A stretch of 64,000 bases of DNA, from the NCBI GenBank assembly GCA_963826525.1, contig CAWGXH010000004.1:128001-192000 (forward strand), written 5' to 3'. Below the pieces are notes generated by a model. The model saw only the letters and a list, made by a program, of their open reading frames with translations. It was not told the DNA's origin and did no database searches. Source of the DNA: an uncultured Methanomicrobiaceae archaeon (lineage in GTDB: Archaea > Halobacteriota > Methanomicrobia > Methanomicrobiales > Methanoculleaceae). Below, in pieces: positions 19,949 to 60,942 of this stretch. The stretch's first letter is position 1; every line of letters begins with the position of its first letter. A program made the position numbers and the translations under genes.

Positions 19949-20125
19949 TTAGAATCTGGGTTTTCTGTGCTTGGGGAGGCAGTCACGGCAGTAGACGGGA
20001 CGGCCCTCGGTGGGCTTGAAGGGAACTTCGCACTCGACGCCGCAGTCGGCGCAGGTTGTCTTGTGGAACTCACGGGGACGGTCGTCGTAGGAACGGGGAC
20101 CGCGGCTGGGATATCTGTTATCCAT
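19949..20125 (-). CDS. CxxC-x17-CxxC zinc-ribbon protein, copy 1 (58 aa)
   Basis: MDNRYPSRGPRSYDDRPREFHKTTCADCGVECEVPFKPTEGRPVYCRDCLPKHRKPRF; below the ORF-track length cutoff; followed by a T8 tract. Confidence 0.9.
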   Translation of the reverse strand: MDNRYPSRGPRSYDDRPREFHKTTCADCGVECEVPFKPTEGRPVYCRDCLPKHRKPRF

Positions 20126-20166
20126 TTTAAATCACTCTCGTATAGATTGAGTATTCAGGGGAGGTA

Positions 20167-20343
20167 TTAGAACCTCGGCTTTCTGTGCTTGGGGAGACAG
20201 TCACGGCAGTAGACGGGACGGCCCTCGGTGGGCTTGAAGGGAACTTCGCACTCGACGCCGCAGTCGGCGCAGGTTGTCTTGTGGAACTCACGGGGACGGT
20301 CGTCGTAGGAACGGGGACCGCGGCTGGGATATCTGTTATCCAT
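20167..20343 (-). CDS. CxxC-x17-CxxC zinc-ribbon protein, copy 2
   Basis: Same protein as copy 1; GAGTGA RBS-like sequence upstream. Confidence 0.9.
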   Translation of the reverse strand: MDNRYPSRGPRSYDDRPREFHKTTCADCGVECEVPFKPTEGRPVYCRDCLPKHRKPRF

Positions 20344-20384
20344 TTTAAATCACTCTCGTATAGATTGAGTATTCAGGGGAGGTA

Positions 20385-20561
20385 TTAGAACCTCGGCTTT
20401 CTGTGCTTGGGGAGACAGTCACGGCAGTAGACGGGACGGCCCTCGGTGGGCTTGAAGGGAACTTCGCACTCGACGCCGCAGTCGGCGCAGGTTGTCTTGT
20501 GGAACTCACGGGGACGGTCGTCGTAGGAACGGGGACCGCGGCTGGGATATCTGTTATCCAT
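20385..20561 (-). CDS. CxxC-x17-CxxC zinc-ribbon protein, copy 3
   Basis: Appears nucleotide-identical to copy 2. Confidence 0.9.
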   Translation of the reverse strand: MDNRYPSRGPRSYDDRPREFHKTTCADCGVECEVPFKPTEGRPVYCRDCLPKHRKPRF

Positions 20562-20602
20562 TTTAAATCACTCTCGTATAGATTGAGTATTCAGGGGAGG
20601 TA

Positions 20603-20779
20603 TTAGAACCTCGGCTTTCTGTGCTTGGGGAGACAGTCACGGCAGTAGACGGGACGGCCCTCGGTGGGCTTGAAGGGAACTTCGCACTCGACTCCGCAGT
20701 CGGAACAGGTTGTTTTGTGGAACTCGCGGGGACGGTCGTCGTAGGAACGAGGACCGCGGCTAGGATATCTGTTATCCAT
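20603..20779 (-). CDS. CxxC-x17-CxxC zinc-ribbon protein, copy 4
   Basis: KTTCSDCGVECE variant; other differences are synonymous. Confidence 0.9.
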   Translation of the reverse strand: MDNRYPSRGPRSYDDRPREFHKTTCSDCGVECEVPFKPTEGRPVYCRDCLPKHRKPRF

Positions 20780-20820
20780 TTTAAATCACTCACTTAGGAT
20801 GGTTTTACTCAAAAGAGGAC

Positions 20821-20997
20821 TTAGAACCTCGGCTTTCTGTACTTGGGGAGGCAATCCCGGCAGTAAACTGGACGGCCCTCGGTGGGCTTGAAGGGAACTT
20901 CGCACTCGGCGCCGCAGTCGGAACAGACTGTTTTATGGAACTCGCGGGGACGGTCGTCGTAGGAACGGGGACCCCGGCTCTGATATCTCTCATTCAT
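20821..20997 (-). CDS. CxxC-x17-CxxC zinc-ribbon protein, copy 5 (first transcribed)
   Basis: MNERYQSRGPRSYDDRPREFHKTVCSDCGAECEVPFKPTEGRPVYCRDCLPKYRKPRF. Confidence 0.9.
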   Translation of the reverse strand: MNERYQSRGPRSYDDRPREFHKTVCSDCGAECEVPFKPTEGRPVYCRDCLPKYRKPRF

Positions 20998-50172: not shown

Positions 50173-50440
50173 TCGTTGATCACCATGGATGAGAGCATTC
50201 CCCCTATGCATCCTCACACGTTGGTTCGGCAATTGCATGATCGGCAGAGCGGCATGGGTGCGATACGTTCGTCACGTTGCAGCCCTCTGCCGACCCTAAG
50301 GGTGATGGGGAGAGCACCTTTATCACATATAAAAGTATCTCAGCACGAGAGGTGATGGGGAGGAGCTGTTCGGGAAACGAGTATTATAAAAATAGTAGAA
50401 TATTATGCGGAACCCTGTCTGGCCTGTAGGGGATCGGCTA

Positions 50441-51286
50441 TCAGGGCCTGGCAAGTTCCCTGACAACGGAGATGTTCCCTGCATCGTCACGCCGCTCATC
50501 CACCGGGGTTTCGCAGATCAGCGGCAGATCGCGCACAGCCGGATGATGGAGGAGGAGACGGAACCCCTCCTCGCCGATACACCCAAGACCGATATGCTCA
50601 TGCCGGTCGAGATGGCTGCCGAGGTCTCCCTTCGTATCGTTCAGGTGAATCACCCGCAGGTGCGCGAGATCAATCCGGTCGTCGAAGATCCCGAATGTCT
50701 CTTCGATACCGTCCTCGGTCCGGAGTTCATAGCCTGCCGCGAAGGCGTGACAGGTATCGAAGCAGATACCGATACGGCTCAGATTCTCGATGCCGTCCAT
50801 GATCCGGCGGATGTCGTCGGCAGTCGTCCCCACACTGTTCTTATCCCCCGCCGTATTCTCGAGGAGCAGCATTACATCGGTATCCGTATCGGCGAGCGCC
50901 CGGTTGACGGCATCGGCCACCCGCTGCATCCCGATCTTGACCCCAACGCCGCCGTGGTGCCCGAGATGGGTGACCAGGTATGGGATACCGAGCGCCCCGC
51001 ACCGCTCGAGCTCGGCGGTCAGCGTCCCGACGGCCTTTTCGAAGTTCTCATCGTTCGACGTCGCCAGGTTCGGAAGATAGGGCATATGATCGATGACGGG
51101 GTGGAGATTTACCGAGGATACCCGGTTCCTGAACGCCGCCACGGCGTCCGCATCCAGTTCCTTCGCTTTCCAGCCCCGCGGGTTTCTCGAAAAGATCTGA
51201 AACGTATCGCAGCCCCGCTCCTCTGCCCTCTCTATCGCCAGCTCGATCGATCCGGCGATCGAGACGTGGCATCCAACCCGCACCAT
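50441..51286 (-). CDS. nfo: Endonuclease IV
   Basis: GCHVSIAG, QIF, HMPYLPNL, ENTAG, DTCH, HLND, DRHEHIG, ETP. Confidence 0.95.
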   Translation of the reverse strand: MVRVGCHVSIAGSIELAIERAEERGCDTFQIFSRNPRGWKAKELDADAVAAFRNRVSSVNLHPVIDHMPYLPNLATSNDENFEKAVGTLTAELERCGALGIPYLVTHLGHHGGVGVKIGMQRVADAVNRALADTDTDVMLLLENTAGDKNSVGTTADDIRRIMDGIENLSRIGICFDTCHAFAAGYELRTEDGIEETFGIFDDRIDLAHLRVIHLNDTKGDLGSHLDRHEHIGLGCIGEEGFRLLLHHPAVRDLPLICETPVDERRDDAGNISVVRELARP

Positions 51287-51327
51287 TGCAGTCACCTATG
51301 GAGCAAAAGAGATGTTAGGTATTCCCA

Positions 51328-52299
51328 TCAGGGGCCGATCAGAGCCTCGAGCTCGCCGAGAACAGCCTTGCCAAACTCCCGTGTTCCGGTCGCCCCCCCG
51401 AGATCGGGTGTCCGGACGCCCTTCGCAACGGTCAGCCGAACGGCCTCTTCGACCGTTGTTGCATGTTCCGTGTCCCCGAAGTGCCGCAGCATCATTGCGC
51501 CGCTCTTGATCGCCGCTATCGGGTTTGCGACGTTCTTCCCGGCGATATCCGGGGCACTTCCGTGAACCGGTTCGAAGAACGCATGCGTATCGCCGATGTT
51601 GGCGCTCGGGAGCAGCCCGAGCCCCCCGACGAGGTACGCGGCGGCGTCGCTCAGGATATCCCCGAACATGTTGGTCGTGACGATGACATCGTAGCGGGCA
51701 GGGTGCATCAGGATGTCGAGGCAGAGTGCATCGATATAGTGGGCTTTGTACGGCACCCCCGCTTCTTCGGCCTCGCTTGAGCAGATCCCGAGGAAGAAAG
51801 CGTCCGACTTGAGAACGTTCGCTTTGTTGCCGATCGTCAGGTGCCGCCGCTGCTTTGCAAGGGTGCAGGCGCACCGGGCAATCCGCCGGCTCCCCTTCTC
51901 CGTAATCACCCGCAGGGTGCAGGCGCGGTCGGCCTCCCGCCACTCGATCCCCGAGTAGAGACCTTCGGTATTCTCCCGCACGATGACGAGATCGAACCCG
52001 TCACCGCGGATCGGGCGGATGTTGGCATAGAGGTCGAGTTCATGCCGGATCTGCAGAAGGACGCTCCGGTACTCCGGGTCGGGAGGTGTCGTCACGGCAC
52101 CGAAGAGGATCGCGTCGGCCGACCTGAGGCGCTCCATCGTCTCCGCATCGCAGGCACTCCCCGTCCGCTTCCATCGCCCGTAGCCGACCTCGACGTCGTA
52201 TAACGAAAAATCCGGCCTGACCGCCTCGATGACGGCACGGGCAACCGGGATAACCTCCTGCCCGATACCGTCCCCTTCAACAACCGCTATCTGCACCAT
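51328..52299 (-). CDS. aksF: Isocitrate/isopropylmalate dehydrogenase family; homoisocitrate dehydrogenase AksF by context
   Basis: EGDGIG, RENTEGLY, KANVL, NMFGDILSD, EPVHGSAPDIAG; context with aksA/D/E (leuB not excluded). Confidence 0.75.
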   Translation of the reverse strand: MVQIAVVEGDGIGQEVIPVARAVIEAVRPDFSLYDVEVGYGRWKRTGSACDAETMERLRSADAILFGAVTTPPDPEYRSVLLQIRHELDLYANIRPIRGDGFDLVIVRENTEGLYSGIEWREADRACTLRVITEKGSRRIARCACTLAKQRRHLTIGNKANVLKSDAFFLGICSSEAEEAGVPYKAHYIDALCLDILMHPARYDVIVTTNMFGDILSDAAAYLVGGLGLLPSANIGDTHAFFEPVHGSAPDIAGKNVANPIAAIKSGAMMLRHFGDTEHATTVEEAVRLTVAKGVRTPDLGGATGTREFGKAVLGELEALIGP

Positions 52300-53098
52300 C
52301 GCATCGCCACCTCCTCGCAACCTCCGTCACCGCACCTGCAATCGCCGCCGGCGGTGCGCCCCAGTGCACCACGGCACCGAACTTTCCGTCGTACGTTCCG
52401 ACTCCTTCCCGCTCACTCCTGCAGCAGCGGGCGATGAACGGTTCCTGCTCCACCGCAGAGAGCGGGCAGGTGTTCTCGAGTTCGAACGCCTCGCCGTAAC
52501 ACTCCCGGACAAGGTCCCTGCCGGTCATGCACCCGGCCACCCGGTCGCCGCCGTGCACGGCATCCGCATCGAGCGTCCGGGAAAAACCCGCTGCACGGCA
52601 GGGATAGAGATCGGCATCGATCTCCGCGATATCCCGGAGGTGCTCCACAAAGACCACCTCAAGGTCGCCGAAGAGACCGCATGCTTCGAGGTCTTTGATG
52701 GTGGCGGCAAGGTGGGGGCGGGGAGGCTGTATATCGTAGACGTGCAGGCGGAGAAATCCGGAGAGGTCGGGATCGAGGACAAACGACGTATGCTCGTCGT
52801 ATCCCGTGAAGACGGTGCAGCGCCGCCCGGACAGGAGCGCCTTCTCGACGAGGCCCCGTCGGTCATGGAGCTGCACCCGATCCGGATAGCAGACGACGTC
52901 GTCTCCTGCGGCAAGAACGCGCATCGCGATCACCTCCCGCATCAGCCCTACCCCGGTCCGGTCGAGCTCGACTTCGAGTACCTCGTGCCCGTTCTCCGTC
53001 TCGCGGATGATGTAGCGGGTCAGGAAGTAGACCAGTTCGCCGCACGGACGATGGCCGGCATCGTATCCGACCTCTTTGCAGTGTGCGGGGAAGATCAC
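52277..53098 (-). CDS. Cys-rich hypothetical protein
   Basis: GTG start overlaps the upstream TGA; FPAHCKEVG, PCRAAG, GCMTG..ECYG..NTCP, ARCCRSE. Confidence 0.75.
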   Translation of the reverse strand: MIFPAHCKEVGYDAGHRPCGELVYFLTRYIIRETENGHEVLEVELDRTGVGLMREVIAMRVLAAGDDVVCYPDRVQLHDRRGLVEKALLSGRRCTVFTGYDEHTSFVLDPDLSGFLRLHVYDIQPPRPHLAATIKDLEACGLFGDLEVVFVEHLRDIAEIDADLYPCRAAGFSRTLDADAVHGGDRVAGCMTGRDLVRECYGEAFELENTCPLSAVEQEPFIARCCRSEREGVGTYDGKFGAVVHWGAPPAAIAGAVTEVARRWRCDGADSGC

Positions 53099-53565
53099 CG
53101 CTGCGACCTCCAGTACCCGACAAGGCCGCCTGCCGCCAGGATCTCGACCATTCGCGGTGAGAGAGGGCGGGCAGAGTATCGTGCACCGTCCACCTCGACC
53201 CACCCCTCATCGAGGTCGAACCGGACAAGCGCCCCTTCGACACAGGGAAGATCGGCCTCGATAACGGGGAGGCCGATATTGATCGCATTTCTAAAGAAGA
53301 TACGGGCAAACGAAGGGGCGACGATCCCGACAACCCCGGCCTCCCGAAGAGCGATGACCGCCTGTTCCCGGGACGAGCCGCAACCCATGTTCTTCCCTGC
53401 GACGACCACGGCACCGGCGAGACGGCCTGCGAGGGCCGGGTCGAGGTCTTCAAGGACGTGCTCCGCCCAGACAGAGCGGTCTTTGGTGCGGAGGTAGCGA
53501 CCGGCGATGATGACGTCGGTGTCGATATCGCTGCCGAGGCAGACGGCACGGCCTTCACCGTACAT
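53095..53565 (-). CDS. aksE: Homoaconitase / isopropylmalate dehydratase small subunit
   Basis: DIDTDVIIAGRYLRT (YLRT loop typical of methanogen HacB), GCGSSREQA, FARIFFRNAINIG. Confidence 0.85.
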   Translation of the reverse strand: MYGEGRAVCLGSDIDTDVIIAGRYLRTKDRSVWAEHVLEDLDPALAGRLAGAVVVAGKNMGCGSSREQAVIALREAGVVGIVAPSFARIFFRNAINIGLPVIEADLPCVEGALVRFDLDEGWVEVDGARYSARPLSPRMVEILAAGGLVGYWRSQR

Positions 53566-54776
53566 TATGGAGCCTCCGGTTCGGTTATCGTGCCGGTAAG
53601 AGCACTTGCCGCTGCGGTGGCAACCGACGAGAGGTAGATCTCGCCGCCCACGCCCATCCGGTTCTTGAAGTTCCGGTTGGCGGTCGATAGGCAGACCTCG
53701 CCCTCGCCCAGCACCCCGGTGTGGGCGCCGAGGCAGGGCCCGCAGCCGGGAGTTCCCACACTGCAGCCCGCTTCCACGATATCCGCAAGGGCGCCGGACT
53801 GTGCGGCCGCCTGGAGCACGGCCCGTGATGCGGGCACGACGATCGTCCTGACCGCGACCTTCTCCCCGCGCACGATCCGGGCAAATCGTTGCAGGTCTTC
53901 GAATCTGCCATTGGTGCAGGTTCCGACGAAGACCTGATCGAGCGGTATCCCGGCAACCTCCGCTACTTCGCGGACGGTATCCACCCGGTGCGGCACCGCG
54001 ACCAGGGGGGTGATCGCCCCGAGATCGAACTCGAGAGATTGTACGTACTTCGCCTCCTCCGGCGCCTGACGCCCGGCGGCGACGCCGCATCCCGCAAGAT
54101 AGCGGACCGTGGTGGTATCGGCATAGAACATCCCGGTCTTCGCGCCGGTCTCGACGGCCATATTGCAGAGGGTGAGCCTTCCGGCCATGGAGATATCTGC
54201 CGCCGCTTCGCCCACGAACTCGAGCGCCCGGTACGACGCTCCGTCCATACCGAGCCTCCCGACGTAAGCGAGCGCCAGATCTTTCGGTTCTGCCGCTCCC
54301 TGCAGGTGGCCGGTGAGGGAGAGTTCGATCGTCTCCGGCACTCTAAACCAGGTGGAGCCTGACGCCCAGATCGCGGCCATATCCGTCGCACCCACCCCGG
54401 TCGCAAACGCCCCGAAGGCACCGAGGGTGCAGGTGTGCGAGTCGGCACCGACAACGATCTGCCCGGGAAGGACGACTCCTTCGCTTAAGACCTGGTGGCA
54501 GATACCCCCGCCGACGTCGGAGAACGCGAGGCCGGCGGAGCAGGCGTACTCCCGCAGTTCCTTCTGCAGGTTCGCCGTCGTCGAGGTGTTTGCAGGAACG
54601 ATATGGTCGAAGATGAGGTGCACCCGCTCGGGGCAGGGCAGCATCTCCACTCCCATCTCCCGGAGCGTCTCCCGCGTGAGAACCCCGGTCCCGTCGTGGG
54701 CGAAGGCAAGATCGACGGCACGATCCACGTACGCTCCTTCGGCCGCCCCGAGGATACGTTCGGCGAGGGTACTCAT
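53565..54776 (-). CDS. aksD: Homoaconitase / isopropylmalate dehydratase large subunit
   Basis: HDGT, DH, GICHQ, GADSHT, GTCTNGR, CGPCLG, STANRNF. Confidence 0.85.
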   Translation of the reverse strand: MSTLAERILGAAEGAYVDRAVDLAFAHDGTGVLTRETLREMGVEMLPCPERVHLIFDHIVPANTSTTANLQKELREYACSAGLAFSDVGGGICHQVLSEGVVLPGQIVVGADSHTCTLGAFGAFATGVGATDMAAIWASGSTWFRVPETIELSLTGHLQGAAEPKDLALAYVGRLGMDGASYRALEFVGEAAADISMAGRLTLCNMAVETGAKTGMFYADTTTVRYLAGCGVAAGRQAPEEAKYVQSLEFDLGAITPLVAVPHRVDTVREVAEVAGIPLDQVFVGTCTNGRFEDLQRFARIVRGEKVAVRTIVVPASRAVLQAAAQSGALADIVEAGCSVGTPGCGPCLGAHTGVLGEGEVCLSTANRNFKNRMGVGGEIYLSSVATAAASALTGTITEPEAP

Positions 54777-55912
54777 GCTCCCGTGACCCCCTTCGCCCGT
54801 TTCAGAATATCACAGAGGACATCCGGCGTGATGCTGCATTTGCCTTCACCGCAGATCTTGATCTGATCCAGCACCCACCGGAGCTGACCGTCGTTCAGGG
54901 TGAATCCGTGCGCCTTTGCCACATGCTCGACGGCACGTCTCCCCGTATGCTTGCCGAGGATGAACCGCCGCTCGCCGCCGACGAGCTCGGGCATGATATA
55001 CTCATACGTCAGCGGGTCTTCGAGAATTGCCGCGATATGAATTCCGCTCTCGTGGGCGAAGGCGTGCTCCCCGACAATCGGCTTCGTTTTTGCAGGAAGG
55101 ATCCCGGAAACCTGCGCAACGTACCGGGAGAGATCGGTGAGACCCGCAAGGTCGTAGCGGTCGATACCGCCTTTCATGCGGAGGGCGACCAGCACCTCTT
55201 CGAGGGCTGCGTTCCCGGCACGCTCGCCGATCCCGTTGACGGTCGTGTGGAGCTGGTAGGCTCCCGTAGCCGCCGCCGTTATGGTATTGGCGGAGGCGCA
55301 CCCGAGATCGTTGTGGCAGTGCACGCAGAGAGGGTGGTCCACCGCACCGGTGATCGTCGTCACGGCCTGCTGCATCTCGAGGGGTGTTAAGCACCCCACC
55401 GTATCGGCAAAACTGACGAGATCGGCGCCGTGCTCGGCGCCCCGGGTGTACATCTCGATGAGGAATGCGATATCGGTGCGGGAGGCATCCTCGGCGGCGA
55501 ATCGCACCTGGACGCCGTGATCCGAGGCGTATTCCACCATCGCGAGGGCATCTTCGAGCACCTGCTCCCGGGGCTTGCGGTATTTGTGCCTGATATGCAG
55601 GTCCGACGTTGCGATGAAGATGCTGACCATATCGACGTCGCAGTCGATAGCGGTCTCGACGTCGGCTTTCAGCGCTCTGGCGAGACAGCAGATGCGGGAG
55701 GAGAGGCCGCTTCGCGCAATGGCGGTGACGCAGTCCTTCTCCGAGGGAGAGACAACCGGAAATCCCGCTTCGATCACCTCGACGCCGACGGCGTCGAGGC
55801 GTTCTGCGATCTTCATCTTCTCTTCACAGGTAAACGATACGCCGGGAGTCTGCTCTCCGTCTCGCAGCGTCACGTCACAGATCTCAATATGCCACGGTTT
55901 CATGTCGTCCAT
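54773..55912 (-). CDS. aksA: Homocitrate / trans-homoaconitate synthase (no C-terminal regulatory domain)
   Basis: DVTLRDGEQ, ADTVG, HCHND, GIGERAGN, HESGIH, GKHTG; about 380 aa. Confidence 0.85.
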   Translation of the reverse strand: MDDMKPWHIEICDVTLRDGEQTPGVSFTCEEKMKIAERLDAVGVEVIEAGFPVVSPSEKDCVTAIARSGLSSRICCLARALKADVETAIDCDVDMVSIFIATSDLHIRHKYRKPREQVLEDALAMVEYASDHGVQVRFAAEDASRTDIAFLIEMYTRGAEHGADLVSFADTVGCLTPLEMQQAVTTITGAVDHPLCVHCHNDLGCASANTITAAATGAYQLHTTVNGIGERAGNAALEEVLVALRMKGGIDRYDLAGLTDLSRYVAQVSGILPAKTKPIVGEHAFAHESGIHIAAILEDPLTYEYIMPELVGGERRFILGKHTGRRAVEHVAKAHGFTLNDGQLRWVLDQIKICGEGKCSITPDVLCDILKRAKGVTGA

Positions 55913-57157
55913 CCTCCGGACAGGTACCCTCAACCACCACGGTACGGGGTTCCTCGGGCACGTACAGCACCTCGCGCAGGGCTTCCTCGTCACCGGCAGT
56001 AACGGTGAACGGCTCCGCCCAGGCGAGGTACTTATGGATATCGTATGCGGGGTGACCACCGGTCATCCCCATACGGTTGTTCTTCAGAACGATACAGAGA
56101 AGCGGTTTACGCTTCTCATAGACGTCAATGAGAGCGTTGATGCCGGAATGGAGCAGGGCATAGTCCCCGGTGAGTGCTACCCTCGTGCTGGCCGCAGCAA
56201 CGGCGACGGACGACCCGAGGCCGTAACTTGCCTCGCCCACCCGGTAGGGGGGATTCATCGCCAGCACCGAGCAGCCCATATCGCAGATCGCCCGAAGACC
56301 CCGCTTCCTCATAAGGGAGAAGACAGCGATGGAACGGGCACTCCCGGCAGAATGTCCGATGAGTAGCCGCGGGTCTCCATCCGTTCCGGAGTCCCGGAGA
56401 GAACGGGAGGTTTGCACCACCGGTGCTCCCGCAGAAACGGCCGGCCGTGCTCGCAGGTATCGGCAAGGAGTGCCGGTTCTGCAGGCGGGGGATAGACCGT
56501 GACGGCCTGTGATTCTCCGAAGCACGTACCGACACCGACCGTTCCGCCCGTCACGCGGTTCAGCGAAGAATCGCGCGACCAGGCAAACATGGCGGCAGTC
56601 CGCCGTTCGGCATCGGCAACACGGCCTGGAAGCGTCAGCCCCGGATCGGCAAGCCGACCGGTGCCGCTCGTTCGCACGACCTCCCCTTCAGGGATATCGG
56701 CATCGAGAAGGAATGGGGTGACCCGGAGCAGTGCGGCGCGGGAGAAGGTCTCCGAAGCTTCGAACGCAGTCTCCACCGCCTGCCGACAGGTTGCGATGCC
56801 CGGTTCCAGCACGGGGATCTCTGCCAGTTCCCCGTAGTAGCGGGAGTCCTGAGCGTTCTGCGACGCCACCACGTCGACATCGTCCCCTGCGACGACCACC
56901 ACGCCCCCGCGAAGTCCCTGGGTGGTTGCGTTGACCAGCGGGTCGGCACAGGCGTTCAGCCCGACGTGTTTGACCACGACTGCCGCCCGGCGGCCGGCGA
57001 GGGAGTCCCCGAGGGCGTACTCGAGTGCCACCTTCTCGTTGACGGCAATCTCGGCGTCGAGAAGCGCCGCAAGCCCGGAGATGGGATAGCCCGGAACGGT
57101 GTAAAACCGGTCGGCGGAACGCCGGAGTGCCGATGCAAGCGCCGCATCACCCTTCAT
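55884..57157 (-). CDS. ThDP-dependent enzyme, short IorA-like (frameshift near 56360)
   Basis: VPGYP, NEKVALE, KHVGLN..ADPL, SQNAQDSR; CRECP, DMGCS, ThDP-binding GDYALLHSG...NNRMGMTGG. Confidence 0.82.
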
Positions 57158-58126
57158 GGTGTATCCCTCCCCGGCACAAGGTCGCAGCCGGTGCAGGCCG
57201 AGCACATCGAAAGAGCGTTTTTCGGCCTGATGTCCTCACGCTGCAGGGCTCGTTCATGGATCTCCAAGATCCGGAGGAGCCGGGATGCAGACGGGCGAGG
57301 TCTGTCGGCAAGGTCGGCTGCCGGCGAGAGTGGGCGGAGTACCGGGGATGACCCCAATCCGGGCGAGGTCGGTGATGCACCGCTCAAGGTCTTCGTCCGT
57401 CTCGCCAAGGCCGACGATGACGTTCGAGAAGACACGGCCACGGCCGAAGAGTGCAACCGACTGCCGGAGCACCTCCCATACGAATCCCCAGTCAAGGCCG
57501 GGGCACATCTCTGCGAAAATGGCAGGGGTCGCCGCCTCGATATTGAACTTCACTTCGGCAACACCGAGGTCGTGGAGCAGGCGGGGGGTGTTCTTTGTCG
57601 GGTAGATGGAGACGCCGATCGGAAGATCGAACCGCCGTAGCGCCTTCACGACATCGAGCACGTATGCTTCTTCCTCCGGAACCGTCGATGCAACCCCGGA
57701 CGTGATCGAGATGGCGTCGATCCCGTCCTTCACGCTCCCGACGAGTCCGACGATCTCATCGACCGATTTCCGCCTTCCCTCGAGAGACGGAACCGGGCAG
57801 TAGCGGCACCGGAAGATACACCTCCCGGTGACGGTGATGTACGCTTGCCGGGGGCAGTGCAGGGCCGCCGGTTCAAGCCGGCCGAAGACCGGCTCGCCCC
57901 CGATGATCAACTGTGCCTCCCCACCGCCTGTGTGTTCGAGCGTAAGAAGGGCTGCCGGATCGACGGTCAGCCTGACACGGCGGTCACCGACGGCAAAGAA
58001 GACCGAACCCGACCCTCCGGCAGAAGGACCGGCAGCGGAGCGGGATACATAGGTATCCGCCGCTTCTCCGGTCAGCCTGACCGAGCCCTCCGCAAGCAGG
58101 GTTGCCTTCAGTCGTTTCCAGTCCAT
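57154..58126 (-). CDS. Radical SAM protein with an extra C-terminal CxxCxxC (frameshift near 57345)
   Basis: CIFRCRYC, ISITSG, NIE, NVIVGLGE; C-terminal MCSACTGCDL in ORF 57154..57495. Confidence 0.88.
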
Positions 58127-59001
58127 AACGCGAGCGCCTCGTCGTATCTGGTCGCAAAGGGGATCGCGGCCACCGCCCCGATGATGCCCCGGCCATCCAT
58201 GGCGATCGTCAGGCGGGGATCGTCGAGTGCCGCGAGGTCGTCGTGCGAGACCTCGCCGCTCTTGACCTTCCGCCCGAACACCTCGAGCGGCCCTGGATGA
58301 AAACCGCGGTAGACGGCCATACCGGTCTTGTCGGAGAGCGTGTACTCCTCGAGATACTCCCGGAAACGCCGGACGAGCCCCACCGGATCGTCGGACGCGA
58401 ACTCGCAAGCGATTGCAACGCAGTTCTTCGTCCGATACGGGACAGGGTAGAGTTGAACGATGGTGTGAGAGAGGTAGCGAGACCGCGCATCCTCGACCGC
58501 GCGTGCGATGTTGTGCGCCAGCGTCCAGGTCGCACCCTCCTCGGGGGTATCCGTATCGTCCACCCCTATCAGCACCCGTTCTCTCCTCGGGAGCCAGATG
58601 GTGGAGCCGGCAAGCCTCCCCCCGCCGGCGGGGTCGCTCCGGAATCGGGTGACCCCGGGCGCGGATGCACGGCATATGGAGGCGCCGACGCCTCCGCCCC
58701 CAAGACCACGGTAGGTGATGGCGATCTCGGAATCATCCACCTCGACGCCGGCGATCCCCGCCGGGAATCGCGAGCCTTCGAGGGCAAGGTCGGCTAAACC
58801 GGTCCTGAGAAGATACCGGTTCGTCGACCCGACGGTGCGGATCGATTCGACAAGCGGGCTCTGCGCGTAGTGGTGTTTCACCCACATCGCCCCTCCGACA
58901 CAGTCGAAGAACTCTACCAGCTCGACACGAGTTCCGTCGTCGTCTGCCACCGCGACGATCTGAGGATACCGGATCGTGTAGGGATCAGAGAGTTTCTCCA
59001 T
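58108..59001 (-). CDS. Methanogenesis marker protein 11 family, paralogue 2
   Basis: DPY.IRYPQI, DCVGGAMW, GLGGGGVGA, IGVDDTDTPEEGATW, HTIVQLYP, TKNCV, GIIGAVAA. Confidence 0.8.
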   Translation of the reverse strand: MEKLSDPYTIRYPQIVAVADDDGTRVELVEFFDCVGGAMWVKHHYAQSPLVESIRTVGSTNRYLLRTGLADLALEGSRFPAGIAGVEVDDSEIAITYRGLGGGGVGASICRASAPGVTRFRSDPAGGGRLAGSTIWLPRRERVLIGVDDTDTPEEGATWTLAHNIARAVEDARSRYLSHTIVQLYPVPYRTKNCVAIACEFASDDPVGLVRRFREYLEEYTLSDKTGMAVYRGFHPGPLEVFGRKVKSGEVSHDDLAALDDPRLTIAMDGRGIIGAVAAIPFATRYDEALALWTGND

Positions 59002-59942
59002 ACAGCCCTGCCGCTTCACTACCCTTGTTCGCCCAGAGCACCGCGCCAAGTGCCCCAATCCGCCCTTTCCTCCCGGTACGGTCGATGTATTGGATGCCGA
59101 GCCGCTCTGCTTCCGCGTGCGCTTCGTCAAGCGTCAGGATATCCGTCTTCACCCGCCGGAGGAACTCCGATTCTTCAGGGAACGCAATCCCCCGGAAGAC
59201 GGCGATACCCGTATCGTTGCTGACTGCCCGGGACTCGATGAAATCGCGCACGTAGGTAAGAAGTTCGTCGACCCGGCCCGGCATGAACCGCAAAGTTCAG
59301 TGCAGAACCCACGCAGTTCGTCGTCTTCTTCGGCACGGCAGGGTTCAGCTGCACGAGGCGCATATCTAGGTACTCGACTCCCGGGATGGCGCAGCTCTCG
59401 GCGCACTGCAGGGCGAGCACCCAGGTGGCTCCCTCTTCCCGGGTATCGGTGTCGTCGATGCCGATCGTCACCTTCTCATAGCGTGGCGAGACGATCCGAA
59501 CCCGGCACGTCCGGGCACCGCCGGGCCTGAGGTCGTCTTCGGACAGGTACTCCGTGCGGATCACCCCGGGTGCCTGGGGGAGGCAGGCGGCGATGCCGAC
59601 ACCGGCACCGGCGATCCCCGACCAGGAGGTTACCACTTCATCGCCCTGCACCTCGACACCCTCGAGCGCCTGCCCGCCGATCTCGCGATCCGCCGCCCCG
59701 AAGTTCACCGGGGATCTCCCGAGGTTCGCGAGCATCGTCATCGACGTTCCCTCGACGAAGGCCGATCGGAGAGCGCCTCCGGCACGGCGCCGATTCGCGG
59801 CATCCCACTCGATGGTGCCCCGTGCCCGGCACTGCTCGCGTACTTCCGCAACTCCTGCCTTCTCATCAATCATAACGAGAAACTTCCGGGCAAACAGCGG
59901 CCCGTAGCGTGCCCTGACATCCTCCGGCGTGAGCGTAACCAT
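58985..59942 (-). CDS. Methanogenesis marker protein 11 family, paralogue 1 (frameshift near 59285)
   Basis: GIAGAGVG, IGIDDTDTREEGATW, LVQLNP, KTTNCV, TGIAVFRG, GRIGALGA. Confidence 0.8.
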
Positions 59943-59984
59943 GGTATCACCGAAAATTTCGTTAACAGGTTTATCGTTGACGAG

Positions 59985-59998
59985 AATATATATAAAAA
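59985..59998 (-). promoter_or_regulatory. TATA box of the mmp11-aks operon
   Basis: TTTTTATATATATT about 45 bp upstream of ATG 59942; GGTGAT RBS; follows the T-tract after ftr. Confidence 0.6.
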
Positions 59999-60033
59999 GA
60001 TCGATCCGGGGCGAAAGCAGAGAAAAAAAGGGT

Positions 60034-60942
60034 TTAAAGTTCGTCCGCGAGGACGTCTTTGAGATCGAACCTGAACGGACCGAGGCTGCCACCGAAGTTT
60101 CCGGCACTGATGAACTTCACGCCGGGGACCTTGGTCGCGGCCTTGATGCCTTCTGACATAGCCAGTTTAACGGCATCTTCGTCGACACCGTCGATGACGA
60201 TCTCGTAGATGGCCTTGACGCCATCAGGAACGTTGCTGTTCTCGACCTTCCCTTTCAGGGTAGGACAGTAGGCTTCGTTGGTGCTTGCGGGCATGAACTT
60301 ATACTTCTTGCTGCCCACCTTGGAACCGCTGGCGACGATACCACCGGGGAACGGCGTGATGACACCGCAGACACCACTGATCGCGTCGACTGCGGCCTGT
60401 GCCCCCATGAGAGCGGACATCTGCGTCTCTCCCATGACGAAGAAGTTACCGCCGGCAACTCCCTTCACGGCACCGAACTCTTCCTCGCCGATGTACTCAC
60501 CCTCCATGATCGGGATGGCCCACACCGTTCTGCCGCCGACTTCACGCTTCTCCTCGTATCCGTCACCGAAGAAGTGGAGTTTGACCGGGATCTTCTCGGC
60601 GACTTCTGCAATAACGTCACCGAGACCGTCGAATGCGGCAGTCGTCGGTGCGGTCAGGATGCATTCGCTGATCCGCTCGACGAGCTGCTCTTTCAGCTTC
60701 TTCTTGCTTGCACAGATCAGGATGGCATAGCCCGGCCTGCCGTCGGGAGTCTCGTCGGGTGAGACGAAGCAGTCGATTCCGGCTTCTGCAGGGCAGCCGA
60801 TAGCGGAAGTGGCAAAGCCAACCGCCTCGACGGCTGATTTGTATGCCCATTCCTCAGTTACTGCCGTGATGACGACCCGTGCTACCCAGGTCGGGAAGGC
60901 CTCTGCATACGTATCGTCAATCGGTACACCATTAAGTTCCAT
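60034..60942 (-). CDS. ftr: Formylmethanofuran:tetrahydromethanopterin formyltransferase
   Basis: [64 protein letters not shown]. Confidence 0.96.

Follow-up and report, generated by a model that had tools for sequence, protein, structure and literature searches.

Linkage and homology point to a candidate gene set for the late steps of coenzyme B biosynthesis in an aks-containing operon of a Methanomicrobiales methanogen

To our knowledge, no methyl- or alkyl-coenzyme M reductase works without coenzyme B (CoB, 7-mercaptoheptanoylthreonine phosphate). Its pathway was traced chemically decades ago, and AksA, AksD/E, and AksF extend 2-oxoglutarate to 2-oxosuberate. Which genes take over from there is the question raised by a locus in an uncultured Methanomicrobiaceae archaeon (assembly GCA_963826525.1, contig CAWGXH010000004.1, positions 128,001 to 192,000; this stretch of 64,000 nucleotides is the window, to which coordinates refer unless a genome handle precedes them). 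Between positions 59942 and 51328, on the minus strand, four aks-type genes lie in a nine-gene cluster together with two mmp11-type genes, a radical S-adenosylmethionine (radical SAM) gene, a gene for a thiamin diphosphate (ThDP) enzyme, and a gene for a cysteine-rich protein of the family DUF7714. The reading we favor is that this is a CoB biosynthesis operon of a methanogen related to Methanoculleus, with the late steps carried out as proposed below. Judging from sequence comparisons, we hold it tentatively, at a probability of roughly 45%. The core idea, that the genes co-transcribed with aks would supply late CoB steps, appears well supported by linkage, co-occurrence, and homology to XcbA, and overall we regard the locus as a strong and testable, if unproven, lead.

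A preliminary description of the locus had stated that the late CoB steps lack firmly assigned genes. This agrees with the searchable literature, outside whose coverage most subscription journals lie: there, we found neither a gene assignment for the steps after 2-oxosuberate nor a paper naming mmp11/TIGR03280 or DUF7714. A 2011 survey gives only Aks-type genes for CoB (PMC3087415), and the curated family libraries of 2025–2026 still carry the labels “methanogenesis marker protein 11” and “DUF7714.” The nine co-directional genes, as delimited by open reading frames (ORFs) and family scans of the window, start at 59942, 59001, 58126, 57157, 55912, 54776, 53565, 53098 (a GTG), and 52299, and stop at 58985, 58108, 57154, 55884, 54773, 53565, 53095, 52277, and 51328. 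Consecutive genes overlap start-on-stop at all eight junctions, from gene 1 to gene 9 by 17, 19, 4, 29, 4, 1, 4, and 23 nucleotides (nt). The junctions listed in the preliminary description match these coordinates exactly, and its gene order (mmp11, mmp11, radical SAM, ThDP enzyme, aksA, aksD, aksE, Cys-rich protein, aksF) fits the family calls.

In the scheme that we propose, gene 4, an IorA-like ThDP enzyme, would convert 2-oxosuberate to 7-oxoheptanoate by decarboxylation. Sulfide addition would follow, after which DUF7714 (gene 8), as a putative Fe–S protein, would form the C7 thiol by reducing the thioaldehyde, the part that XcbA plays in coenzyme M (CoM) synthesis. The mmp11 protein (gene 2) would join 7-mercaptoheptanoate to threonine by chemistry of the TiaS type, in which ATP phosphorylates an oxygen that is then displaced by the amine, and it may also phosphorylate the threonine product. 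Gene 3, the radical SAM protein, would act with mmp11 in an unspecified step, and gene 1 would be a lineage-specific mmp11 duplicate. By sequence, the ThDP enzyme and DUF7714 make good candidates for decarboxylation and thiol formation, and mmp11 a fair one for the ATP-dependent formation of the amide and the phosphate; the radical SAM enzyme and gene 1 are weak candidates for late steps. The fullest version of the scheme, drawn by analogy, seems to us unlikely: that the operon holds the whole late pathway, that mmp11 is the first small-molecule kinase of the TiaS fold (activating the 7-mercaptoheptanoate carboxylate for coupling and also phosphorylating the hydroxyl of threonine), and that a reductase of the XcbA type is common to bacterial CoM and archaeal CoB synthesis.

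The strongest evidence for a shared pathway is a chain of linkages (aks to DUF7714, aks to the ThDP gene, the ThDP gene to mmp11, and mmp11 to the radical SAM gene) that survives varied break-ups of the cluster. In a DNA search against 25 relatives, six families of the order proved to share the colinear block. Species genomes scanned for the protein pattern gave 538 confirmed loci, of which 80 were kept, all from Methanomicrobiales (Methanoculleus, Methanoregula, and others). Genes 1 to 9 stand in order in 54 of the 80, and genes 2 to 9 in another 14, with gene 1 not in the available upstream sequence; contig ends truncate the remaining 12, and no locus shows a rearrangement. The order is therefore fixed in all 68 complete loci. 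For a wider view, 151 genomes of the phylum were sampled with six queries (DUF7714, mcrA, mmp11, gene 4, gene 3, and gene 9), and gene content was read in 20 regions of 20 kb and checked by tblastn; f-numbers denote families in this sample. DUF7714 lies within 1 kb of a gene-9 (aksF) ortholog in 66 of the 66 genomes that have it (23 in f1–f6, 16 in f7, 11 in f10, 10 in f14, and 6 in f23). Gene 4 belongs to the single operon in f1–f6 (23/23), adjoins mmp11 in f7 (16/16), f23 (6/6), and f14 (7/10), and sits within the aks–DUF7714 block in f10 (11/11) and in f14 (3/10). Two f14 genomes carry mmp11, radical SAM, ThDP, aksA, aksD, aksE, aksF, and DUF7714 genes in one block; among the variants of this family, one genome has no radical SAM match in the block and another has mmp11 and the radical SAM gene as a separate pair. 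The synteny that the preliminary description had suggested testing is thus conserved, with the DUF7714–aksF and ThDP ties present in 66/66 genomes and reaching at least four further families, over several methanogen orders.

Are the four aks-type genes what they seem to be? Gene 5 (54773..55912, 379 aa) is an aksA-type member of the homocitrate/isopropylmalate synthase family, scoring 444 bits on TIGR02090 and 463 bits on NF002085, below the cut-offs of both; it is one of three paralogs in the genome and the one located in the conserved block. Gene 6 (53565..54776, 403 aa) is an aksD-type large subunit of homoaconitase or isopropylmalate isomerase (IPMI). It passes the cut-off of the hacA_fam model TIGR01343 (486 bits), and its scores for HacA_Meth (427 bits) and LEU2 (381 bits) are both below cut-off. 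HacA_Meth scores the large-subunit paralog of the genome higher than gene 6 (490 vs. 427 bits), and the NCBIfam equivalog scores do not separate HacA from LeuC for gene 6. Gene 7 (53095..53565, 156 aa) is an aksE-type small subunit whose top relative in the PDB is 2PKP, the homoaconitase small subunit of M. jannaschii, at 122 bits vs. 98 bits for IPMI small subunits. The aligned loop, which we take to be the substrate-specificity loop of the methanogen homoaconitase small subunit, reads YLRT in gene 7 and in 2PKP, and FLTI in the leuD paralog of the genome. Gene 9 (51328..52299, 323 aa) is of the aksF-type homoisocitrate dehydrogenase family (TIGR02088, 391 bits) and scores 315 bits for AksF2_Meth and 310 for AksF_Meth against 241 for LeuB (NF002898), whereas its paralog at G000:C4:1280465-1281367 (G000 being the source genome) ranks the opposite way, with 362.5 bits for LeuB and 239 for AksF2. 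That paralog belongs to a separate leuC–leuD–leuB block (G000:C4:1278622-1281367, leuC at 1278622-1279788), and two further leuA/cimA paralogs lie elsewhere. Given this separate leu block and these paralogs, the cluster genes would be a dedicated extra set. Genes 7 and 9 rank as Aks by score, and the ranking does not discriminate for gene 6; with the rankings, the YLRT loop, the second set of paralogs, and the gene context taken together, the aks assignment of the preliminary description holds. The enzyme families are those of M. jannaschii AksA, AksD/E (HacA/B), and AksF, and the YLRT loop is common to both small subunits. In the cluster, however, the aks genes share one operon with five further genes, unlike in M. 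jannaschii, where they are presumably dispersed.

One of those five is DUF7714. Gene 8 (52277..53098, 273 aa, GTG start) matches PF24830 at 291 bits over profile positions 1–280 of 280, above the gathering score of 25 bits. The NCBIfam XcbA family (NF052538) was matched by nine of nine DUF7714 orthologs, with a best E-value of 8.6e-26 over positions 37–290 of 293; the window protein and its congener score 48.6–49.9 bits, below the curated cut-off of 150. On these comparisons, gene 8 is a distant homolog of XcbA and not a member of the XcbA family. XcbA completes CoM synthesis in bacteria as a [2Fe-2S] protein that takes sulfoethanethioaldehyde to the CoM thiol, and is stated to have no known homologs (PMC9457059). 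Gene 8 and the XcbA of Xanthobacter autotrophicus Py2 are both Cys-rich, about 270–290 aa long, and align over nearly their full length, and the demonstrated reaction of XcbA, from a thioaldehyde to a cofactor thiol, is the role proposed for gene 8. They differ in that gene 8 has an archaeal host and aks neighbors rather than the xcbB–E neighbors of XcbA, and its putative substrate would be a C7 acid rather than a sulfonate. Five Cys in the C-terminal half of DUF7714 are invariant (C167, C190, C211, C225, and C226, the last two a CC pair) and are compatible with an Fe–S cluster. We found no sequence relatives of DUF7714 among solved structures; its AlphaFold model (mean predicted confidence, pLDDT, 73) gave no Foldseek match at E ≤0.001, and the ESM Atlas gave no usable match. 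With VIA-align, the best Z was 7.6, to generic alpha/beta folds and for residues 113–273 only, so that the N-terminal part is barely covered.

The ThDP enzyme encoded by gene 4 (55884..57157, 423 aa when intact) scores 162 bits on TIGR03336 (IOR_alpha), against a cut-off of 650.9. TPP_enzyme_C was detected in nine of nine orthologs, and POR_N (5/9) or TPP_enzyme_N (3/9) in the N-terminal part. IorA and the alpha and beta chains of 2-oxoacid:ferredoxin oxidoreductases (OFORs) likewise consist of Pyr (POR_N-like) and PP (TPP_enzyme_C) domains, which gene 4 has in a single chain. Unlike IorA, gene 4 has no ferredoxin domain (Fer4 in 0/9 orthologs), and family scans found no iorB partner in the cluster. 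The Methanomicrobiales protein also does without most of OFOR domain II, which is present in the orthologs of 490–560 aa of other families; between the ThDP domains it is about 80–100 residues shorter than the proteins of loci L025, L027, L028, L030, L031, L033, L041, and L042. A phmmer search returned no solved relatives, and the gene-4 profile gave only weak OFOR-alpha matches among solved structures. Four Cys of gene 4 are invariant (C270, C273, C295, and C412), in a CxxC...C...C arrangement that resembles the [4Fe-4S] site beside ThDP in OFORs.

mmp11 is related to TiaS. Gene 2 (58108..59001, 297 aa) scores 335 bits on TIGR03280, above the curated cut-off of 255.8, over profile positions 2–290 of 292. 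Pfam hits place TiaS-like kinase (TCKD) and ferredoxin-like (FLD) domains in its C-terminal half (residues ~141–289), and its DDTD and GATW motifs are invariant. The mmp11 profile matches the TiaS structures 3AMT, 3AU7, and 4RVZ at E-values of about 1e-9 to 1e-10, and Foldseek aligned the AlphaFold2 model (pLDDT 88.5) to 3AMT with a probability of 1.0 and a root-mean-square deviation of 2.5 over 150 columns; for the N-terminal 140 residues, no fold match was found. While TiaS, the tRNA(Ile2) agmatidine synthetase, has the kinase and ferredoxin-like domains in common with this C-terminal half, mmp11 is without the C-terminal tRNA-binding domains of TiaS and has an N-terminal domain of its own of 140 aa. 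On the TiaS model (NF040849), gene 2 reaches 21.5 bits against a cut-off of 600, over positions 2–151 of 422 only, and the source genome encodes another TiaS-like protein, roughly 400 aa long. In the TiaS reaction, a carbonyl oxygen is phosphorylated at the expense of ATP and then displaced by an amine; the enzyme also phosphorylates a threonine. By analogy, such chemistry would suit both amide formation and phosphorylation in CoB.

Gene 1 (58985..59942; 318 aa when intact, at L010:1551-2507, the locus of the cluster in the congener G001) carries a TiaS-like TCKD domain (Pfam TiaS_TCKD, E 2.3e-12). Its TIGR03280 scores of 143 and 45 bits on the pieces in the window, and of 198 bits on the intact ortholog, remain below the 255.8-bit cut-off, so by sequence it is a paralog and not mmp11 proper. 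Genes of its type adjoin mmp11 in f1, f3, f4, and a single f5 genome; in f14 they are not linked to it, and in f7, f10, and f23 of the 151-genome sample none was found. The preliminary description had envisaged a whole pathway, with a pair of TiaS-like proteins serving the coupling and phosphorylation steps. With gene 1 absent from those three families and from 14 of the 68 complete Methanomicrobiales loci, this part of its proposal fails. A gene-1-type paralog, 52% identical to gene 1, also occurs in one f15 genome (G124, locus L040), and no other cluster gene lies within 10 kb of it.

Gene 3, the radical SAM gene (57154..58126, 323 aa when intact), matches PF04055 with an E-value of 5e-15 and 56.5 bits, above the Pfam score of 29.5. 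Its Cx3Cx2C motif, CIFRCRYC, is invariant in eight of eight homologs, and a second, C-terminal triad (CxxCxxC) brings the number of Cys invariant in the eight aligned homologs to six. More specific models give weak scores, all below their cut-offs: 62.6–65 bits for LipS2 (NF053743, cut-off 270), 68.5 for the MSMEG_0568 radical SAM family, and 58.5 for variant_rSAM. With LipS2/BioB-type and MSMEG_0568-type enzymes, gene 3 shares the radical SAM core and a second Cys triad, and its matches to these families are weak, far below the cut-offs. On the MSMEG_0568 model, the radical SAM genes that stand beside mmp11 in other families score higher, with 231 bits in f8 (L036) and 275 bits in f16. One of three f12 genomes likewise has a strong gene-3 homolog, and a second copy was found in several genomes; in several methanogens it lies away from the operon. 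Fe–S or radical sulfur chemistry, which the preliminary description had ascribed to the cluster, is made more specific for the Cys-rich protein by its homology to XcbA, and for the radical SAM protein finds nothing specific beyond the weak LipS2/BioB-type scores.

How far does this gene set track the reductase that requires CoB? Of the 151 genomes, 91 showed mcrA and 66 showed DUF7714. The two coincide in 64 genomes, and the two DUF7714 genomes without an mcrA match (G097 and G099) are fragmented assemblies. Every sampled genome of f1–f7, f10, f14, and f23 carries all three of DUF7714, a gene of the gene-4 type, and mmp11. Class I methanogens are represented by named control genomes only; of the controls, M. 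acetivorans carries DUF7714 as well as mmp11, with its gene-4 and mmp11 orthologs adjacent to each other, and M. jannaschii carries mmp11 without DUF7714. In the mcrA-positive families without the unassigned genes, a close AksF homolog was found in 0 of 28 genomes (E ≤1e-70), and a YLRT-type small subunit in 0 of 10 hits from five representatives. Since these families are also without a close AksF, the unassigned genes and the dedicated aks set appear and disappear together.

Several observations nevertheless weigh against reading the cluster as a CoB operon. In 27 of the 91 mcrA-positive genomes (2 in f8, 3 in f12, 17 in f15, 3 in f16, and 2 in f20), the searches found neither DUF7714 nor a gene of the gene-4 type, and DUF7714 is absent from the M. 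jannaschii control, even though CoB is, or ought to be, in use in all these organisms. Going by the scores and the copy number of their mcrA genes, f15, f12, and f20 would appear to be of ANME-1, Methanoliparia, and Syntrophoarchaeum type. mmp11 scores above its cut-off in 75 of the 151 genomes, including three f16 and two mcrA-positive f8 genomes, and among them are five without an mcrA match at E ≤1e-20 (G066, G073, G081, and G088 in f8 and G075 in f17), with completeness of 94–99%. It was not found in f12 (0/3) or f20 (0/2), and the sole mmp11-type match among 19 f15 genomes is the gene-1-type paralog; a methanogen-only phyletic pattern of mmp11 is therefore not what the 151-genome sample shows. 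Strong, full-length gene-3 homologs (42–44% identity) occur in 7 of the 19 f15 genomes (G115, G111, G146, G078, G086, G137, and G071) without mmp11, the ThDP gene, or DUF7714, and the gene-3 family may have two functions. Beyond weak LipS2/BioB-type scores, gene 3 has no specific tie to sulfur chemistry, and by analogy the Cys pattern of gene 4 may suit redox chemistry rather than plain decarboxylation. Gene 1, as noted, is missing from 14/68 complete loci. The equivalog cut-offs for AksF, HacA, and HacB are not reached either: on the models NF040615, NF040625, NF040604, NF040619, and NF040626 (cut-offs 550, 230, 230, 500, and 540 bits), the scores are 427 for HacA_Meth, 161 for HacB2_Meth, 129 for HacB_Meth, 310 for AksF_Meth, and 315 for AksF2_Meth, although these models seem to be tuned to other methanogen orders. 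Lastly, 2025 genetics points, if indirectly, to MMP16 and L-ASST for the CoB thiol (PMC12068725), and both genes occur, unlinked to the cluster, in the source genome. The profile against mcrA that the preliminary description had suggested is thus favorable from the side of DUF7714 (64/66) and unfavorable from the side of mcrA (27/91 without DUF7714) and of mmp11 (five mcrA-negative genomes). Since whole mcrA-positive families and M. jannaschii are without parts of it, the scheme is not universal and would not be the sole route to CoB. These gaps suggest that ANME-1-like and some alkane-oxidizing lineages make or obtain CoB otherwise.

The distribution of mmp11 bears on a reading in which only the ThDP enzyme and DUF7714 process what the aks enzymes make. 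The mmp11–radical SAM pair, with gene 1, would then have a different task, such as modifying a protein, an RNA, or another cofactor, and would merely be co-transcribed in this order. A radical SAM gene stands beside mmp11 in four of five regions read (L036 in G066, L037 in G081, L038 in G108, L039 in G075, and L034 in G035), and the pair occurs, with the same six-Cys layout, without MCR, DUF7714, or gene 4 in the f8 genomes G066, G108, and G081 and in G075 of f17. Its neighbors in f8 and f16 (a PepQ-family peptidase, thioredoxin reductase, acyl-CoA dehydrogenase, and thiolase, and also the thermosome, ThiL, AspRS, and HisD) gave no functional lead. In f7, f10, and f23, moreover, mmp11 is unlinked from the aks–DUF7714 block, and TiaS, the sole characterized relative of mmp11, acts on tRNA. 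Yet mmp11 adjoins the ThDP gene in f7, f23, and f14, and in f10 and f14 the ThDP gene is part of the aks block, so that mmp11 is chained to aks after all; with its 297 aa, it is also without the RNA-binding C-terminal domains of TiaS. We consider a separate function for the pair doubtful. A different division of labor would leave the C7 thiol to MMP16 and L-ASST, the COG1900 proteins, with DUF7714 serving, for instance, as a back-up for CoM synthesis or as a redox or maturation helper for the Fe–S enzymes of the aks set. MMP16 (ComF) and L-ASST are proposed to turn an aldehyde and sulfide into a thiol, the same type of step as that of DUF7714, to which their family is unrelated. According to the 2025 genetic study, MMP16 is the main CoM synthase of M. 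acetivorans, a mutant without it still makes some CoM at high sulfide, and L-ASST could not be deleted in that mutant even with CoM supplied, a synthetic lethality from which the authors infer a shared, essential role “likely in CoB biosynthesis” (PMC12068725). The source genome has MMP16 (531 bits) and a COG1900 paralog, M. jannaschii has MMP16 and no DUF7714, and the known product of XcbA is CoM (PMC9457059). However, DUF7714 lies beside aksF in 66/66 genomes, which argues for an aks product rather than sulfoacetaldehyde as its substrate, whereas MMP16 and the COG1900 paralog lie far from the cluster in the source genome and, unlike DUF7714, are unlinked to aks. Leaving the thiol to COG1900 proteins alone therefore strikes us as quite improbable, and the two views can coexist if the thiol-forming steps are redundant.

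The last functional alternative removes CoB altogether and has the aks-like genes serve some other 2-oxoacid elongation, for leucine, lysine, or the pimelate of biotin. 2-Oxosuberate has indeed been proposed as a source of pimelate. The equivalog cut-offs for AksF, HacA, and HacB that remain unreached, together with the higher HacA_Meth score of the large-subunit paralog (490 bits against 427 for gene 6), would fit such a role. Against this stand the complete leuC–leuD–leuB block elsewhere in the genome, the YLRT loop of the small subunit and its best score with a solved methanogen homoaconitase, and the confinement of the block to families with mcrA in 64/66 genomes; bioF, bioA, and bioD, too, were not found by family scans in the cluster. 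We think it very unlikely that the cluster serves leucine, lysine, or biotin, and retain the CoB operon as the preferred reading.

Whether all nine genes are functional in this organism depends on how the broken reading frames are explained. The preliminary description had the cluster, its junctions, and its gene order right, but its treatment of genes 1, 3, and 4 as open frames did not stand: none of the spans that it gave (958, 973, and 1274 nt) is divisible by three, each of these genes is split over two or three frames in the window, and four single-base insertions had been overlooked. The DNA of the congener is 90% identical and has all nine genes intact. Aligned with it, the window has an extra, uncompensated base at four positions: 59284 in gene 1, 57339 in gene 3, and 56362 and 56328 in gene 4. 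Logan contigs of one soil-metagenome run cover all four sites at an identity of at least 95% and have one base fewer at each (missing at 59286, 57342, 56361, and 56329); depth is 2–4 with one contig per site, and the run may be the source sample, which would make it independent of the assembly and not of the organism. Such breaks are widespread. Over the 64-kb window, 15 groups of net-frameshift indels break ORFs of at least 200 aa, as against 3 in the congener, and the broken ORFs include some of 1150, 666, 592, and 585 aa. The two leuA/cimA paralogs outside the cluster (G000:C4:1584496-1585577 and G000:C5:284820-285864) are also split, in a source genome of 87.6% completeness on 16 contigs. 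Because the congener and the metagenome contigs do not have the insertions and because breaks occur throughout the window and in the leuA/cimA paralogs, the four frameshifts are, by this comparison, assembly errors that are not specific to the cluster. One could argue instead that in this strain the breaks are real and genes 1, 3, and 4 are pseudogenes undergoing decay, given that the four insertions are uncompensated and that none falls in a long homopolymer. We find this scarcely credible, as near-identical metagenome contigs are without the extra base at 4/4 sites, the congener genes are intact, and the cluster rate of 4 in 8.6 kb equals the background rate; we rejected it on the window-wide indel comparison and the metagenome contigs. 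Protein work on genes 1, 3, and 4 accordingly used the intact orthologs of L010, and gene calls in this genome need a frameshift-aware reading.

What the locus means for the field depends on how much of the scheme is borne out. The cluster and its linkage network already narrow the search for late CoB genes to four conserved families. If confirmed, they would close the last biosynthetic pathway of a methanogenic coenzyme in which steps are still open, offer new targets for methane mitigation, and provide parts for the expression of MCR in other hosts. Were the proposed role of DUF7714 true, the thiol-forming steps of CoM and CoB would have a common ancestor across domains, and DUF7714 could explain the residual CoM synthesis of Methanosarcina mutants without MMP16.

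The surroundings of the cluster are of interest for its transcription. A putative TATA-like element, ATCTTTTTATATATATTCT, lies on the minus strand at 59983..60001, 41 nt upstream of the first ATG. In a scan of the window, it was the sole 10-mer with at least nine A/T across 50407–60001, and the single TATA box of the preliminary description holds in that it is the only AT-rich element of the region upstream of gene 1; it is a putative promoter. Upstream of it, a T-run (60023–60029) ends ftr, the gene for formylmethanofuran:tetrahydromethanopterin formyltransferase (60037-60942), which lies directly upstream of the operon. At the other end, nfo (deoxyribonuclease IV; 50444..51295, minus strand; TIGR00587, 265 bits, above cut-off) starts 32 nt downstream of gene 9 and also follows the cluster in the congener locus. 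The gap holds no AT-rich element, either in the window or in the congener, and the transcription unit may therefore hold ten genes; an AT-rich stretch with a T-run follows nfo at 50380–50406. nfo is probably co-transcribed with the cluster as a tenth gene, functionally unrelated to it, and we do not count it in the pathway. mcrA lies at G000:C4:203259-204938, about 11 kb past the end of the window and about 15 kb from the operon promoter. With mcrA nearby and ftr directly upstream, the cluster sits in a region rich in methanogenesis genes. Elsewhere in the window, a 218-bp unit is tandemly repeated 4.8 times with 95% matching at positions 19949–20988; the unit looks like a putative coding sequence, on the minus strand, for a small Cys-containing protein, and a related array is present in the congener.

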